Of a stretch of 64,000 nt of DNA, positions 10,611-28,380 are shown in pieces. This DNA comes from a virus (lineage: Duplodnaviria > Caudoviricetes). Numbering within the stretch: the stretch's first letter is position 1; each line of letters starts with the position of its first letter. Both the position numbers and the translations under genes were made by a program. The stretch spans positions 192,001 to 256,000 of the IMG/VR virus record IMGVR_UViG_3300033498_000048. The stretch is one strand, 5' to 3'. The notes below the pieces were generated by a model, which ran no database searches, was not told the DNA's origin, and saw only the letters and a list, made by a program, of their open reading frames with translations.

Positions 10611-10658
10611 AAATTAATCTCCAATGTATATTACATCTATTTATGGTTTAATTTTGAA

Positions 10659-13845: not shown

Positions 13846-14934
13846 TTATGTACCATCGCTGAAGAATCCAAATATTAAATGATTGGATTCTTCATTGTTT
13901 AAATAATTTTCACGCATTGACATTCTAGTGTCTAAATTTGTTAAATCGTAAAAATAGTCTTGACTTGTTAGCCATGCAAATATAACTAAGGTCATTACAA
14001 TATCATCGTGTTTACCACGTTCAGCTTCATAGGAAGTTCCCTTCTTAATAAACATAGTCAACTCTGTAATTGTATTGTAATCTACTAATTCTAAGGTATC
14101 ACTTTCAATTAGATTTTTTAATGTACTACATCCTATTAATTTGGTCTTTTTAGTTTGTCTTATTCCAACAATACTTGAATCTGTTATTATCGTATCTCCC
14201 TGCTTAGATTTTGATGTTAGCATATTTTCATATTCATATTCATAATACAATATGTTTGCTACTATTGTTCCAACACTATTGGATTCAATTACAATATAAG
14301 CATCATTATACTTTTTCGAGATGTGATATGATTCATCTGCAAACATAAAAGGAACAATTTGATTGTTCCTATAAACAGCAACTTGTTTATATCGCTTCTC
14401 AGTGACATCAATTATTGATATTACAGAATAGTCTTTGCCCATTCCCTCAGCAACATCAATAATTGAAATGTACGAATTACCTTGAATTGGATGCTCATAA
14501 ATGTATAAAGAATCGTTGATAACTTCTAATGGTTGTTTGTGGGTTAATTGTTGTAATTTCTTACCTGATATTAATGTACCAGAACTTCCAAGGAAATTAC
14601 AATTGTGACTGAGTATTCCATTAGTGTAATAAACACTATCTGTTCCAACATCAATTAAATCATACATTTCAATTGGAACATCTATCAGCTCTTTGTCAAT
14701 AACAAAACAACCATCCATATTAGTATCAACAAAATCACCTATAACCAACTCAATTGCCGTTTTTATTCCATCAATGGTAACTAATGGATGATTATCAGAA
14801 CATACCAAGTTAGTTCCATTAGAAAAACTTAACTTGATTTGCCTATCTTTGTTAATTTTATTAATCCCAATAAACGGTTCAAACCCATTAGGTGTTAAAA
14901 CTGTTAATTGTAAGTTGTTTGTTAATGTTGTCAT
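13846..14934 (-). CDS. gp17: Terminase large subunit piece 3: split-intein C-fragment 2 plus nuclease domain
   Basis: After ...TNGILSHN the sequence reads CNFLGSSGTLIS, IIDVAEGMGKDYS, IESNSVG and HDDIVMTL, all T4-like gp17 C-terminal motifs. Confidence 0.95.
   Translation of the reverse strand: MTTLTNNLQLTVLTPNGFEPFIGINKINKDRQIKLSFSNGTNLVCSDNHPLVTIDGIKTAIELVIGDFVDTNMDGCFVIDKELIDVPIEMYDLIDVGTDSVYYTNGILSHNCNFLGSSGTLISGKKLQQLTHKQPLEVINDSLYIYEHPIQGNSYISIIDVAEGMGKDYSVISIIDVTEKRYKQVAVYRNNQIVPFMFADESYHISKKYNDAYIVIESNSVGTIVANILYYEYEYENMLTSKSKQGDTIITDSSIVGIRQTKKTKLIGCSTLKNLIESDTLELVDYNTITELTMFIKKGTSYEAERGKHDDIVMTLVIFAWLTSQDYFYDLTNLDTRMSMRENYLNNEESNHLIFGFFSDGT
14602..14934 (-). mobile_element. Split intein C-fragment IntC2 (111 aa)
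   Basis: Begins with Met and has no block A. VLTPNGF; block B VCSDNHP; block F MYDLIDV; block G SHN with +1 Cys. Same layout as atypically split TerL inteins (AceL-TerL type). Confidence 0.92.
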
Positions 14935-14949
14935 TATTATTCCATATCG

Positions 14950-16299
14950 TTATATGACATTGCAATTCAATCTATTATTTGTTGGATATACTGAAACCTT
15001 ATCAATAACATGACTATCAATTATTATTGAGTGTATTGTTCTTCCTATAAACGATTGTTTGTTTAGCCTTTCAACATATATTTTAACCCCGTTTTGCGAC
15101 TCGACTGATTTCTTCAATCTGTGTTTTAGTGGACTCTTTAATACCATGCAATCACTCGTAATTCCATTATACAATTCAATTATTTTATTTAATATTTCAC
15201 ATCCAATTATACTTTTACCAACAACTATTGGAATAGTTAAATTTGAATTAAATGCTAAACTAATAGCAGCATCATATATTAAATTGTTTGATATTTCAAA
15301 ATCGCGAGTACAATATTCTGGAGTTTGACTATTGTTAATTAATTGATATAAATCTCCAAATGTAATATTGTTACAAATTGAATTTTCGGATTTAATTATA
15401 ACTTCGGTATTAGCGGAACAACAATCATATTCTTGTGAGAAATTTTGTGTCCCAATATTACTTTCGGTTGTTTGTCTCCACGCTTCATCGCGTTCTGGGT
15501 GGTCATACCACAAATATTTACTCCTAACAAACTCATTTCTACCCTGTTCAGATTCAATCCACAGTTTGTAAAACAAATTCATACCTTTTGGAGTAGACGT
15601 GATTATCACCTTAGTTGTTTTTCCAGATGATATTACTGGGTAGGTTGATTCAAAAAATTCAACATCATTGTCAATATGGGCGAACTCATCACAGTAGAGT
15701 GTTCCAACTGATTTACCCCTGATGGAACTTGATGATGTTGCTGCACTAAAACACTTTGAACCATTCGCCAGTGTGATACTTGTTTTGTTCCAAGTTACAA
15801 CTCCAGGTTTTAAAAACCAAGGCAACTCCTCAAACATCTTACATAAACGGTCTAATATTTCTGCGGAAGTAGCTCCCTTATTTGCTAATATTCCAATCGA
15901 CTTATTACTATTGAATATTGCCTCATATAACAAATAGGCTGCTGCTGTTGTTGTATTGTGACTTACTATTCCATTTGAATAATATTGGTGTGATTCAGAA
16001 TCAACTTCAACATCATACATATTCTCGTATTCAGTTGTATTAGTAATTGATATTACTTTTGATGTACCGTTAATAGTTTTAATCACATCACCAATTATTA
16101 AGTCTTTAACAAATACTTCGGAATTGTATTCTGACATTACTATATGCGTATCTGCACACTCTAATTTTGCTCCACAATCAAACTCAACAACCCATTTTTC
16201 ATACGGAACAGTTTTCATTACATTTGTACAATTTACCCAACCTTCTGGGGTAAATACTTCCCAATCTGTAATTGGAATAACCCTCTCAAACTTCCTCAT
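14950..16299 (-). CDS. gp17: Terminase large subunit piece 2: IntC1, ATPase core, IntN2 and a degenerate ATPase-like tail
   Basis: SHN|TTTAAAYLL...ILANKGATSAEIL...SIRGKSVGTLYCDEFAHI...IITSTPKGMNLFYKLW...QEYD|CCSANTEVII. Confidence 0.95.
   Translation of the reverse strand: MRKFERVIPITDWEVFTPEGWVNCTNVMKTVPYEKWVVEFDCGAKLECADTHIVMSEYNSEVFVKDLIIGDVIKTINGTSKVISITNTTEYENMYDVEVDSESHQYYSNGIVSHNTTTAAAYLLYEAIFNSNKSIGILANKGATSAEILDRLCKMFEELPWFLKPGVVTWNKTSITLANGSKCFSAATSSSSIRGKSVGTLYCDEFAHIDNDVEFFESTYPVISSGKTTKVIITSTPKGMNLFYKLWIESEQGRNEFVRSKYLWYDHPERDEAWRQTTESNIGTQNFSQEYDCCSANTEVIIKSENSICNNITFGDLYQLINNSQTPEYCTRDFEISNNLIYDAAISLAFNSNLTIPIVVGKSIIGCEILNKIIELYNGITSDCMVLKSPLKHRLKKSVESQNGVKIYVERLNKQSFIGRTIHSIIIDSHVIDKVSVYPTNNRLNCNVI
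15313..15423 (-). mobile_element. Split intein N-fragment IntN2 (about 30-37 aa)
   Basis: CCSANTEVIIK...ITFGDLYQL fits block A (C1xxxxT6xV8) and the I..LY signature of short IntN pieces. The C-terminal boundary is approximate. Confidence 0.85.
15955..16299 (-). mobile_element. Split intein C-fragment IntC1 (115 aa)
   Basis: VFTPEGW; block B LECADTH; block F MYDVEV; block G GIVSHN with +1 Thr. No block A. Confidence 0.92.
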
Positions 16300-16837
16300 T
16301 TATGATTCCATTTATCAACTTCAATGTATCACATTGGTCACTAGGTGTGTCATTATTTACTAATATAGTATTAGCAAAATTTGATTTTAATATATTGCGT
16401 ATTTTAGTTTTTCTACCCTTTAAGAATGTTTGATTTTGGTTACTACCTCTATCCAAATACCGTTTTTCCAAGTCTGTTGATTGTAAACATATAATATGTA
16501 AGGTTGTGTTTGCAATCTTAGAATAATACTCGAATAAACTAGATGACGATAACCTATCCCCTTCAAAAATAATTGTTGAATTTGTATTAATATCATCTAT
16601 TATAAATTCTTTAAATACTGGCATTACATTCATAGCCAACTTGTCTGTTCCAGAAAATGTTTCTGTTGGATTAGAGTAATCGCCAACTATTTTAACAACA
16701 CCAATATCATGGTACTTAACCAATTTCATATACTTCTTCATATCGGTTACATCAACGTTCAATGATTCAATTAACCGTTTCATTAAAGATGTTTTCCCAG
16801 TTCCAGGCTCGCCTATTATTGCTATCATTTTTTGCAT
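16286..16837 (-). CDS. P-loop nucleotide kinase of a base-hypermodification cluster
   Basis: IIGEPGTGKTS; IFEGDRL; RGSNQNQTFLKGRKTK. Overlaps both neighbouring genes. Confidence 0.75.
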   Translation of the reverse strand: MQKMIAIIGEPGTGKTSLMKRLIESLNVDVTDMKKYMKLVKYHDIGVVKIVGDYSNPTETFSGTDKLAMNVMPVFKEFIIDDINTNSTIIFEGDRLSSSSLFEYYSKIANTTLHIICLQSTDLEKRYLDRGSNQNQTFLKGRKTKIRNILKSNFANTILVNNDTPSDQCDTLKLINGIINEEV

Positions 16838-17973
16838 ACAAATCCCCTAAGTGATTGATTGTTTGTTTTGTAATAAGTATCATTATAATCATTTTTAAAA
16901 CAATCGTGTTCAAAGTTCAACATTACAACTTGACCCGTGTTCCTAAAATGATTTTGTTTGTCCTTGTGTACACCTTTACATCTTGGGTTATATTCAAATA
17001 GTAAATACTCAGGTAAGCAATTATGTCTAATATTCCAGAATAAATCAAAACGTTTATTCCATTTAATTTCAGCATATTTTATTCTATCGTGAAACATATC
17101 ATTATACACATTTGGATAACGTCTATTTTTCCTATACCACGATTTGTAGCAGCACAAGGTTGATTCTAATGTAAAATAATTTACATCATTAATATAATTT
17201 TCTTCCTTGAACCTACCAATACATTCGCTTAACAGTACACCACCTTCAATTGTTAATGCTTCAATAATACCTTTATCATATTTACCATCAAAATCTGGAT
17301 TAGATTGTGAATGCCAATCTAAATCGTCACGCCCCAATACCTTGCACAAACCATTCCTATGTGATTTACTACCATTCAAATCATGTAAAAACAATGAACT
17401 ACAGCAAATATTTAAGCCTATTATTTTCAAATATTCTAAATATGAAAATGTCGATAGTCTCCCGAATAAGTAAAACTTATCAATTACAGTTTTCCATACT
17501 GTATCAAAATTATCAAATTGGTTGTCGGTATTGCACATTGATGTGAAAAAATTATGTTGAGTATCGTATTTAGAGATTATTTCTTTATAATTTAGAATCA
17601 TATTCTCTAATTTATTTTTTACATATCTCCTATCTGTATCCCAACCAAACTTAGTATAGTTTTCTCTGAAAAAAACAGAAAATTTGTCAATATCGAGTGT
17701 GTTAAAATCACTAAAATTCTCAAACAAAATCCATGATGTAATAATATTTTGACAACAACCATTTAAAAACACCAACCAATATTGCTGCTCTATATTTAAA
17801 TTGTGTATTTTAATTAACTCTGGAATGACATAATACACTGCCCCAGGGTGTGATTTATATTTTAAATGGAATTGATAAAACCTAATAAATGTTTCACGCC
17901 GATATTTGTGTTCCCTGAAATCAGAACCAACAACCAAGTTTGAATCATTGTTGCTGTTAATTTTAAATACCAT
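16825..17973 (-). CDS. aGPT-Pplase2-like (alpha-glutamyl/putrescinyl-thymine pyrophosphorylase clade; amino acid:DNA transferase)
   Basis: HPGAVYY; DTDRRY; FGRLSTFSYLEYL; GSKSHRNGL; FTLESTLCCYKS; YPNVYNDM. Confidence 0.75.
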   Translation of the reverse strand: MVFKINSNNDSNLVVGSDFREHKYRRETFIRFYQFHLKYKSHPGAVYYVIPELIKIHNLNIEQQYWLVFLNGCCQNIITSWILFENFSDFNTLDIDKFSVFFRENYTKFGWDTDRRYVKNKLENMILNYKEIISKYDTQHNFFTSMCNTDNQFDNFDTVWKTVIDKFYLFGRLSTFSYLEYLKIIGLNICCSSLFLHDLNGSKSHRNGLCKVLGRDDLDWHSQSNPDFDGKYDKGIIEALTIEGGVLLSECIGRFKEENYINDVNYFTLESTLCCYKSWYRKNRRYPNVYNDMFHDRIKYAEIKWNKRFDLFWNIRHNCLPEYLLFEYNPRCKGVHKDKQNHFRNTGQVVMLNFEHDCFKNDYNDTYYKTNNQSLRGFVCKK

Positions 17974-19375
17974 AATTTGTTCCTGTAAAATATTGTAATA
18001 TAGGTTTATGATATTGCTCTAACCAATCTTTGCCATTATCTTTAGTTAGTAAGAACTCATACCACTCCCTAGCACATTCATAATTACCATCTTTTTCTAT
18101 TATATTACCAAAAGAATTTGTTCCAACTCCATTCCAACCTTTGATATTTGAATTGTTTTTCCTCAACTCAACAAATTCTTTTCGGGCTTGCTCATATTCA
18201 TATGTGCCTAGTGATAACATCCCTTCATGTAAAAATGCTATCACACTAACACGTTCAGCATCGGGTTCATGTAACACTATCTCAGTATTACCATGTAAGC
18301 CTTGCATATTATTGATTAATAGTAAATCGCGGGGTCTAATATCAATTGCATATCCAATTTCAGGTAATACTAAATGTCCACCAGAATAATTATCATTTTT
18401 GGATAATACACATAAATTAGCAAAACCTTGTTCCATGTTTGCTGGGTCATAATGTGCTGAGGTTCTGAAATTTTTATTTACAGTAATAGTGGTAAATGGT
18501 GTGTTAGGTACAATGAACTTATTATCTATTTTATCACAAGCTGCTAGTTGATTAGCATACCTAATTGGTAATAACTCTTTGAATAATTGTGCCAGCCTTT
18601 CTAAAAATGGAAAAGATAATTTAAATTTTTCATAGTTGTTTTTTGTGTATGCCGTTTCACGCCCAAACGGAATCCTTGGGTATCTATCATAATATCCAGC
18701 AACCCCAGAGTTTACAAAGTTTGCGTATATTGTTTTTGATATGTACGATTTAACCAATTTACAATTATCTACAATAGTTGTAAATTCATATTGTCCAGAC
18801 TTAATTGTACTAATTAATTCAAAATACCACAATTCAAAATTAAAATTATTTATAATAACTTTATTAGATATGTAAACTTTATCGGTATATTCTGGTTCAC
18901 TTTTATACACCTCAAATATTGATTCCAACTGTAATATTGTTTCAGTTGTAATTCTTTTACAATTAATTAAAATATCCAGTATAGAAAGTTCTTGTTTTGT
19001 TGCTCTGACCCTATTACCATGTAATCTAGTGTTTATTTTTCCACTAGCATTACCTCGATTATCTGTTGGAACTGCTGCGTCAGCCAACCCATCATACCCA
19101 GATTCAACTTCAGATTGAGTGAATGCGTTTTTTCTAAACTTGAATAGTATGTATTTTTCTGGATTTGAATTAACACACCTAATACAATCATCTTTTGTTT
19201 GGCAGTTATTACCTTTAGCATATTTTAATAACCCTCCAGGGTTACAAGAATCATATAGATATAAGTCGGTATCTTCAGTTATTAATGTGTGGTATGATGT
19301 ATCATCTAACCACTCCCTAACCAATTCTTGTTTGTTAGTATAATCTTTAATTGTTAAAACTATTTGTTTAACCAC
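17963..19375 (-). CDS. TET/JBP-family 2OG-Fe(II) nucleobase dioxygenase
   Basis: FTTITVNKNFRTSAHYD (HxD), GGHLVLPE, LHGNTEI (distal His), ERVSVIAF. Confidence 0.82.
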   Translation of the reverse strand: MVKQIVLTIKDYTNKQELVREWLDDTSYHTLITEDTDLYLYDSCNPGGLLKYAKGNNCQTKDDCIRCVNSNPEKYILFKFRKNAFTQSEVESGYDGLADAAVPTDNRGNASGKINTRLHGNRVRATKQELSILDILINCKRITTETILQLESIFEVYKSEPEYTDKVYISNKVIINNFNFELWYFELISTIKSGQYEFTTIVDNCKLVKSYISKTIYANFVNSGVAGYYDRYPRIPFGRETAYTKNNYEKFKLSFPFLERLAQLFKELLPIRYANQLAACDKIDNKFIVPNTPFTTITVNKNFRTSAHYDPANMEQGFANLCVLSKNDNYSGGHLVLPEIGYAIDIRPRDLLLINNMQGLHGNTEIVLHEPDAERVSVIAFLHEGMLSLGTYEYEQARKEFVELRKNNSNIKGWNGVGTNSFGNIIEKDGNYECAREWYEFLLTKDNGKDWLEQYHKPILQYFTGTNYGI

Positions 19376-19505
19376 ATCAATGCTCCTTGTTTTTGTGTAT
19401 TGTTGTAGTATTTATCACAATAATCAAACGCAACATTTATATTTACACTACCACAACAGTCTGCTAAAATTGTACATTTAAACGTATTAATTTGGAGTCA
19501 TCATT

Positions 19506-25624: not shown

Positions 25625-26203
25625 GTGAACACTAGAACTAGAATACAAACATCGAATAACTCATCAATCAATATCCACAAACAATTTTTAAATAATGATA
25701 CTGTTACATTTCTAATAAAGTATTATAAAAAATTACCATACTTCCAAGATAATTACAATTTTAATGGAAACATTGTTCAATCGCCAAGGTTGATTTGTTA
25801 TATGGGAGTTAAAAACTATTTTTACAGTGGAATTAACCATGTTCCAATTCCATTCGATAACATCACTAAAACACTATTGGATTTAATTGTGAAGTTATAT
25901 CCATACCAATATAACGGGTGTTTGATTAATTATTATAGAAATGGTAACGATTCTATTGGAATGCACACGGATAATGAATCGTGTATTGATTTATCCGTTC
26001 CAATTATAAATCTATCATTAGGTTCAAATCGAACACTAATTGTAAAGGATATTAAAACAAATGAAAAACACAAAATTCTAATGGAATCTGGTTCATTAAT
26101 TGGTATGATTGGTGATTTTCAACAAGATTGCATACACGGAATTGCAAAAGAAAAGAATATATTAACTCCTAGAATATCTATAACATTTAGAAGATTTAAA
26201 TGA
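25625..26203 (+). CDS. alkB: AlkB-family (ALKBH2/3-like) 2OG-Fe(II) dioxygenase
   Basis: PRLICYMG; CLINYYRNGNDSIGMHTD; NLSLG; IHGIAK; RISITFR. Confidence 0.9.
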   Translation: MNTRTRIQTSNNSSINIHKQFLNNDTVTFLIKYYKKLPYFQDNYNFNGNIVQSPRLICYMGVKNYFYSGINHVPIPFDNITKTLLDLIVKLYPYQYNGCLINYYRNGNDSIGMHTDNESCIDLSVPIINLSLGSNRTLIVKDIKTNEKHKILMESGSLIGMIGDFQQDCIHGIAKEKNILTPRISITFRRFK

Positions 26204-28309: not shown

Positions 28310-28380
28310 TCCGTGTTTGATATATAATTGTGAAATGGAGACATGATGTCTCCATTTCACATATGGGGAGAATAAGAAAG

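Follow-up and report, generated by a model that had tools for sequence, protein, structure and literature searches.

Three consecutive genes on the minus strand of a viral genome, coding for a TET/JBP dioxygenase, an amino acid:DNA transferase (AADT) and a P-loop kinase, were analysed in a stretch of 64,000 nucleotides, referred to here as the window, which corresponds to bases 192,001-256,000 of a single viral record of 305,782 bp (IMG/VR record IMGVR_UViG_3300033498_000048). Coordinates preceded by G000 are those of the whole record and all others are those of the window. The record carries direct terminal repeats, is rated 100% complete and has a GC content of ~30%. Its T4-like gene set, with a gp20 portal, a gp19 tube, a gp18-type sheath and a gp17-type terminase, is that of a 306-kb T4-like jumbo phage. 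The sole strong match among sequencing runs was a microbial mat metagenome, which is the probable source, and two DNA runs gave weak matches.

Organisation of the three-gene operon and its putative late promoter

The minus-strand open reading frames (ORFs) 17963-19375, 16825-17973 and 16286-16837 are linked by successive overlaps of 11 and 13 nt. The third shares 14 nt, including the ATG, with the next ORF, 14950-16299(-), which encodes the second piece of the large terminase subunit (TerL). An earlier note on this DNA had described three overlapping genes, the last of them reaching 14 nt into this terminase piece, and the ORF coordinates confirm that description. The first gene (17963..19375, minus strand) encodes a 470-aa long-form TET/JBP (5mYOX) dioxygenase, predicted from its Pfam and PHROG matches, its motif and its structural model to hydroxylate thymine in DNA. 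The product of the second gene (16825..17973, minus strand) is a 382-aa AADT, also named ADDT, of the clade-2 aGPT-Pplase type, as indicated by PF18724, phrog_3271 and the residues E270 and C274. The third gene (16286..16837, minus strand) codes for a 183-aa P-loop kinase (Ploopntkinase3), a predicted 5-hydroxymethyldeoxyuridine (5-hmdU) DNA kinase according to PF18751 and phrog_800. The whole genome holds one TET, one AADT and one such kinase gene.

The start codons were assigned individually. The GTG at 19375 of the TET gene is backed by an AAGGAG ribosome-binding site read from the sequence at 19383..19388 on the minus strand, 7 nt before it, and by an N-terminus matching that of the homologs. 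In the AADT, the residues L13, G16, D18 and F19 are invariant in homologs, so that the start is needed before residue 13, and the sole candidate is the ATG at 17973. The ATG at 16837 of the kinase gene is preceded by AGGGGA; were the ATG at codon 4 used instead, the kinase and AADT genes would remain overlapped, with ATGA at the AADT stop. No terminator-like site was found between the TET gene and the TerL pieces.

A late-promoter-like sequence, GATAAATA (19409..19416, minus strand), precedes the TET start codon by 33 nt and was evaluated through the statistics of the ATAAATA heptamer. This heptamer is depleted 2.4-fold in the window (27 observed copies vs 65.7 +/- 7.3 in shuffles), and 10 of the 27 copies stand 17-35 nt upstream of start codons, among them those of the portal (27 nt), the sheath (35 nt) and the TET gene (GATAAATA, 33 nt). 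The 27 sites include those at 10638, 13575, 19409 and 50206, all on the minus strand. The placement of the 10 copies agrees with late promoters of the T4 type whose first base varies. As the position and the form of GATAAATA are those of a T4-type late promoter, it is plausible that the operon is transcribed late. An exact TATAAATA was also matched inside the TET gene (18847..18854, minus strand); it may have arisen by chance or serve as an internal late promoter for the AADT gene, the kinase gene and TerL pieces 2 and 3.

To place this arrangement among its relatives, 80 IMG/VR loci with the long-form TET family were surveyed for neighbours within 10 kb; many of these contigs are short and the counts are lower bounds. 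A terminase adjoins the cassette in 0/80 of these loci. The earlier note had deduced late modification from the coupling to TerL. Late expression stands as plausible, and is better based on GATAAATA than on the overlap, whereas the adjacency of the terminase is not a conserved trait. The overlap with TerL probably reflects a shared late transcription and is not a demonstrated mechanistic link to packaging.

Family assignments and conserved residues of the three proteins

The earlier note had assigned the three genes to families from their translations. The assignments were verified with profile hidden Markov models and the catalytic residues were found in place in the three proteins; an NCBIfam search of the proteins returned nothing specific. 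The TET protein was recognised by the Pfam Tet_JBP profile (PF12851) with 88.7 bits for a cut-off of 34.9 (E 3.3e-25) and by phrog_24024 (1.8e-106). In an alignment of 35 homologs, the Fe(II) triad H308, D310 and H361 and the 2-oxoglutarate-binding R375 are invariant, the HxD...H...R signature being intact, and a Cys4 cluster (C44/C58/C64/C67) is nearly invariant. At E <= 1e-5, 1430 homologs were collected, all of the long form (about 460 aa), the nearest being 50% identical. The long-form family is large and, as far as could be established, without biochemical assignment.

The AlphaFold (AF2) model of the TET protein has a predicted local distance difference test score (pLDDT) of 84. It was superimposed on human TET2 with a Z of 19.7 (root mean square deviation 3.8, 272 aligned residues) and on Naegleria TET1 (NgTET1) with a Z of 18.5; AlkB-type enzymes gave lower values (Z 12-14). 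The structural alignment begins at residue 1, and the N-terminal strands therefore belong to the TET core, of which residues 1-105 form a part. The additional length of the protein comes from a low-confidence loop containing the Cys4 cluster, a confident helical insert of ~100 aa (~120-215) and a C-terminal helical extension. For the helical insert, no recognisable structural relative was detected (best Z 4.9). The ~230 residues which precede the Pfam TET match had been considered as a fused ParB-like or DNA-binding domain; this possibility was rejected. Residues 1-105 are part of the core, and the N-terminal segment of 230 aa has no Pfam match and no similarity to the ParB-like gp1 of a mycobacteriophage.

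The AADT matches PF18724 with 81.2 bits for a cut-off of 26.2 (E 1.2e-22) over profile positions 13-188 of 232, and phrog_3271 with an E-value of 1.2e-69. Its homologs number 1229, the nearest being 61% identical. E270 and C274 are invariant across 27 homologs and align with the E..C pair of the ViI-type AADT from Klebsiella phage May (32% identity, 2e-32) as well as with that of M6 gp51. M6 gp51 and ViI gp247 both require the conserved cysteine and the glutamate near it (Lee et al., PMC8989533). With only 32% identity to its nearest characterised relative, the AADT gives no basis for deducing the amino-acid donor.

The kinase matches PF18751 (Ploopntkinase3; 31.1 bits, cut-off 27, E 2.1e-7) and phrog_800 (3.2e-11). 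The latter family also contains M6 gp54, an experimentally shown 5-hmdU DNA kinase (phrog_800 at 2e-39, Pfam 'HMUDK_HMUD1'), to which the kinase shows a weak pairwise match (4e-4). Among 34 family members, the Walker A motif G9-E-P-G-T-G-K15-T (as G9-x-P-x-x-G-K15), the F61-x-GTD65 segment, the Walker B-like E92-G-D-R95 and the arginines R126 and R130 are conserved. Its Pfam family is a sister of those to which the characterised kinases belong, and we infer that 5-hmdU in DNA is its substrate. The label 'terminase small subunit' attached to phrog_800 was discounted as a sign that the kinase acts in packaging, the label being a legacy error which stems from the annotation of the kinase M6 gp54. 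In RefSeq NC_007809, M6 gp54 is annotated as 'terminase small subunit', and this label has spread to phrog_800 and to phage records such as Cr30 and Quesadilla.

Proposed modification of thymine and alternative readings

The earlier note had left the modified base open between thymine, oxidised to 5-hydroxymethyluracil (5hmU), and 5-methylcytosine (5mC), oxidised to 5-hydroxymethylcytosine (5hmC), and had suggested that the rest of the genome be searched for a dUMP hydroxymethylase or a C5-methyltransferase. This search was carried out. Over its full 305,782 bp, the genome gave no match to PF00145, the C5-cytosine methyltransferase family, and nothing homologous to the C5-methyltransferase of phage Melnitz. 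The complete genome is likewise devoid of any ThyA-family protein; neither a ThyA-type dUMP hydroxymethylase nor a dTTPase was found. The ThyA family includes the known dUMP and dCMP hydroxymethylases. The two methylases found are both of the N6/N4 type, and an atypical Thy1-family protein, discussed below, is encoded. The absence of a C5-methyltransferase and of a ThyA-like hydroxymethylase favours thymine in DNA as the substrate of the pathway, so that of the two post-replicative branches of the earlier note the one starting from thymine is retained and the one starting from cytosine is not favoured. No PF02195 match, the signature of ParB, was detected in the complete genome; the mycobacteriophage gp1 itself has no Pfam match and a very divergent ParB is therefore possible.

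Taken together, the gene order, the conserved residues and the genome content make it likely that the three genes constitute a late-expressed operon which hypermodifies thymine in already polymerised phage DNA. In the first step, the TET/JBP enzyme, with Fe(II) and 2-oxoglutarate, would convert thymine in DNA to 5hmU by hydroxylating its 5-methyl group, as suggested by its family, its intact active site and the genome context. The P-loop kinase, judging from its family, would then phosphorylate the hydroxyl group of 5hmU to yield 5-phosphomethyl-deoxyuridine (5-PmdU). In the third step, Cys274 of the AADT would attack C6 with expulsion of the phosphate and formation of an exocyclic methylene, in keeping with the family and the conserved Glu/Cys pair, and the AADT would add an amino acid or amine nucleophile to it. 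A part of the 5hmU may be diverted by a TET-associated glycosyltransferase (TAGT) towards a sugar-bearing, base-J-like base.

Homologs of the tailoring enzymes of the compared cassettes (GATase, amidoligase-like protein, acetyltransferase and the genes flanking the ViI-type AADT) were not found anywhere in the genome, and the final product is thus probably a simple amino-acid-thymine adduct, the identity of the donor not being predictable. We agree in this respect with the earlier note, according to which the final base cannot be predicted from sequence. The purpose of the modification is likely the shielding of virion DNA from host nucleases.

Several observations weigh against this scheme. 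A GATase_6 gene is present in 42/80 related loci and is missing here; the minimal cassette may depend on a host factor or lead to another product. The AADT sequence and a 27-member AADT profile both failed to reach the solved structure of PaMx11 gp46 (8Z2M). The kinase belongs neither to PF18748, the Pfam family of the characterised M6 gp54, nor to PF18747, that of the ViI-type kinase; it matches PF18751 alone, and with a score which barely exceeds the cut-off. The long-form TET family (phrog_24024) is just 23% identical over 120 aa to the ParB-associated mycobacteriophage TET, and some phage TET clades are inactive in E. coli (Burke 2021, PMC8256090). The genome encodes a tandem Thy1-family protein whose product, dTMP or other, is not readable from its sequence. 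The phage is uncultured and RNA is absent among the sequencing runs found to carry this DNA.

The TAGT is at the origin of the first alternative, in which the sugar branch would dominate: this enzyme would mainly glycosylate the 5hmU made by TET into a base-J-like base, with the kinase and the AADT acting at a subset of sites, or both marks would coexist. The TAGT (387 aa; PF20691, 9e-40) is encoded on the plus strand at G000:187104-188267, where it stands alone, 22 kb from the TET gene and 4.9 kb before the start of the window. A pairing of the two genes is seen in locus L008, where a long-form TET is paired directly with a GT1 and a TAGT, and in locus L047, where a single operon has the order TET-GATase-AADT-kinase-TAGT. 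Glycosyltransferases are moreover the commonest neighbours of phage 5mYOX enzymes (31%; O'Toole et al., PMC13229309). In this phage, however, the TAGT lies outside the operon, a TAGT occurs within 10 kb in just 2/80 related loci, and the genes physically and translationally coupled to TET are those of the kinase and the AADT. The sugar and AADT branches are not mutually exclusive, and we regard a predominance of the former as rather unlikely.

A route through cytosine is still less probable. Here, a host enzyme, or a phage methylase that escaped recognition, would supply 5mC, and this base would be oxidised to 5hmC, then phosphorylated and substituted. Phage TET clades A and B do act on 5mC (Burke 2021, PMC8256090), TET enzymes can take both 5mC and T, and the Methylophilales phage Melnitz combines a C5-methyltransferase, a TET and a homologous kinase. 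This reading is opposed by the absence from the complete genome of PF00145 and of the Melnitz-type enzyme and by the N6/N4 type of both methylases, and also by the facts that the characterised AADTs work on 5-PmdU (PMC8989533) and that a C5-methyltransferase co-occurs with just 6% of the mined 5mYOX pathways (O'Toole, PMC13229309).

An equally small chance was given to a pre-replicative supply, in which a Thy1-like protein would make 5-hydroxymethyl-dUMP and 5hmU would be incorporated at replication, the TET enzyme being supplementary or having a site-specific or regulatory role. The candidate is an atypical tandem Thy1 (ThyX)-family protein of 437 aa encoded on the minus strand (G000:129701-131014). 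Its N-half matches Thy1 (3e-12) and is devoid of the RHR motif; the sole RHR lies in the C-half, which is unmatched by Pfam, and is not followed by the usual downstream serine. A Thy1-family hydroxymethyluridylate synthase has been put forward for phage SP-15 (PMC5977210), as a hypothesis only, and phage T-dioxygenases are sequence-selective, in agreement with a more restricted role of TET. On the other side, no dTTPase and no known ThyA-type dUMP hydroxymethylase accompany the protein, direct incorporation of 5hmU would make a TET at the head of the operon superfluous, and the cassette matches the hydroxymethylase-lacking ones of Lee et al. (PMC8989533). That the genes are inactive remnants, or act on a substrate other than DNA, is hardly credible: nothing direct speaks for it beyond a TET C-terminal tail departing from the conserved tail of its relatives, and it is opposed by three intact frames in which every catalytic or family-invariant residue is kept, by the preserved ribosome-binding site and gene overlaps, and by a clear purifying selection among the homologs (1430 TET, 1229 AADT).

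In favour of an in situ modification of thymine, comparable cassettes were found in the related loci. Among the 80 loci, an AADT gene was detected in 39, a kinase in 32, GATase_6 in 42, TAGT in 2 and a terminase in 4. The kinase and the AADT occur together in 30 of the 39 AADT-bearing loci, and in locus L076 the TET, AADT and kinase genes are directly adjacent in an order identical to that of this phage. The contigs with TET or AADT homologs are T4-like and carry variable modules after TET. A first type comprises GATase_6, an amidoligase-like protein, an acetyltransferase, AADT and kinase; a second type contains a 367-aa uncharacterised protein, AADT, kinase and a second oxygenase; and a third one consists of glycosyltransferases including TAGT. 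No homolog of the accessory genes of these relatives' cassettes is present in this genome.

The type of cassette and its interpretation have already been published. Lee et al. (2021/22, NAR, PMC8989533) reconstituted the kinase, AADT and tailoring steps for M6, ViI and PaMx11 and reported metavirome contigs with TET_JBP in place of the dUMP hydroxymethylase (their Fig. 2, sequences 22-25). Likened by their description, these contigs unite the same three families (TET_JBP, 5-HMUDK and aGPT-Pplase2) without a dUMP hydroxymethylase, and the logic proposed for them is the same as here, namely T oxidised in situ followed by the kinase and the amino-acid transfer. The present set differs from them by its reduction to three genes, by its occurrence in a 306-kb T4-like jumbo phage and by its transcriptional tie to an intein-fractured TerL. 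In M6, PaMx11 and ViI, of which the substrates are glycine or serine, the AADT belongs to the same family (PF18724) with the essential Glu/Cys, and M6 gp54 shares phrog_800 with the kinase. There, however, 5hmdU is made before replication by a dUMP hydroxymethylase, tailoring by pyridoxal phosphate (PLP), radical-SAM, FAD or acetyltransferase enzymes is added, and the M6 and ViI kinases belong to PF18748 or PF18747 whereas the kinase studied here belongs to PF18751.

Among the characterised dioxygenases, the phage TETs of Burke et al. (PMC8256090) act on 5mC, with one acting on T; their clade A/B 5mC-dioxygenases have an adjacent C5-methyltransferase, whereas none is present in this genome. 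O'Toole et al. (PNAS 2026, PMC13229309) showed the oxidation of T in DNA by phage 5mYOX enzymes about 290-300 aa long. These fall into ParB-dependent (C1) and ParB-independent (C2) clades, the former being linked to kinases, AADTs and GATases; terminases are found near 5mYOX in 19% of their contigs. As in these T-dioxygenases, the TET/JBP gene studied here has no neighbouring C5-methyltransferase; its neighbours are the genes of a P-loop kinase and an AADT, an association reported for clade C1. In contrast to the assayed enzymes of about 290-300 aa, its product has 470 aa, a Cys4 loop, a helical insert and a C-terminal extension, and no ParB match accompanies it. In mycobacteriophage Prince (PQ184799), a ParB-like gp1, a thymidine hydroxylase gp2, gp3, a kinase gp4 and a terminase gp5 follow each other, so that the TET-AADT-kinase-terminase order is the same. 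The AADT is 36% identical to Prince gp3 and the kinases are 25% identical (3e-11), whereas the Prince TET belongs to another family (phrog_6059 vs phrog_24024 here; 23% identity over 120 aa). The terminase type also differs, and no counterpart of the ParB-like gene of Prince was found.

The locus is thus a new example and not a new system (Lee, PMC8989533; O'Toole, PMC13229309). Its distinguishing points are a long-form TET without ParB, the minimal gene set, the separate TAGT, the jumbo T4-like genome and the position before a fractured terminase. It provides a complete-genome case in which a TET-seeded cassette, predicted to hypermodify thymine, is reducible to three genes, in a T4-like jumbo phage without ParB, C5-methylase or ThyA-type hydroxymethylase. 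It should also offer a clean and small construct for rebuilding a fully post-replicative pathway and for identifying the amino acid moved by this AADT lineage.

Two further genes lie a few kb from the operon on the opposite strand: an AlkB-like 2-oxoglutarate-Fe(II) oxygenase (25625-26203, plus strand; PF13532, 3.5e-21) and one of the two methylases, an N6/N4 DNA methylase (28330-29097, plus strand; PF01555, 4e-45). The other methylase, at G000:279.5-280.3 kb, was recognised as N6/N4-type by its NPPF motif.

Polymerase-like C-terminal tails and the fractured terminase

In the wider TET family, 31/35 long-form proteins end in [S/N/G]-[L/I]-[E/D]-x-[F/L]-[F/Y/M]. In each of the 19 related loci in which both ends were readable (19/19, loci L021-L098), the TET and the DNA polymerase share a terminal SLExFF(G) peptide. 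Hydrophobic-acidic C-termini of this kind are, in gp43, gp55 and gp33, known binding epitopes for the gp45 clamp (PMC2988020). In this phage, a divergent S-L-x-[K/G]-F tail is shared by the intein-split polymerase (G000:166144-167226(-), ending in ...SSLIKFKTNI), the AADT (16825-17973(-), ...QSLRGFVCKK) and a glycosyltransferase (G000:14237-15406(+), ...QSLLKFVSH); the TET tail does not fit it. As a background, [ST]LxxF occurs in the last 13 residues of 9/429 frames. A complex prediction for the gp45 clamp with the C-terminal 58 residues of the AADT gave a score of 0.00 with a partner pLDDT of about 30, and speaks neither for nor against binding.

This tail pattern is the most interesting lead of the analysis. 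It raises the tentative and so far rather doubtful idea that the long-form TETs (phrog_24024, 1430 or more members) constitute a third, self-sufficient class of phage thymine dioxygenases, working tethered to the gp45 sliding clamp. If this were true, bases would be hypermodified in physical association with the clamp used in replication or late transcription instead of free in solution, and the polymerase-like tail of the family suggests a way by which modification enzymes could find newly made DNA.

The terminase following the operon is in pieces, as the earlier note had proposed, which is supported by the Terminase_6N and Terminase_6C matches, by the intein ends and by a weak match for the first piece. 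TerL piece 2 (14950..16299, minus strand) is composed, from its translation, of an intein C-part, the ATPase extein (Terminase_6N, 2.7e-23) and an intein N-part. TerL piece 3 (13846..14934, minus strand) comprises an intein C-part, with a weak Intein_splicing match, and the nuclease extein (Terminase_6C, 1.4e-16). The weakly matching piece 1 is located at about 30589-30948 on the minus strand, 14 kb away and beyond plus-strand genes. The intein C-part of piece 2 ends in ..SHN and is followed by TTTAAAY, the second half of Walker A. The two intein sites lie accordingly within Walker A, between GK and TTT, and between QEYD and CNFLGSSG, where the intein of piece 3 ends in ..SHN before CNFLGSSG. 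A single stop, inside the second intein, separates piece 2 from piece 3, which continues in the frame of piece 2. An alternative genetic code had been considered as the cause of the split and was rejected, long ORFs covering 92% of the genome under the standard code. The family B DNA polymerase (G000:166144-170653(-)) is likewise fractured, into two ORFs with intein ends between which lies a 351-aa endonuclease-like ORF.

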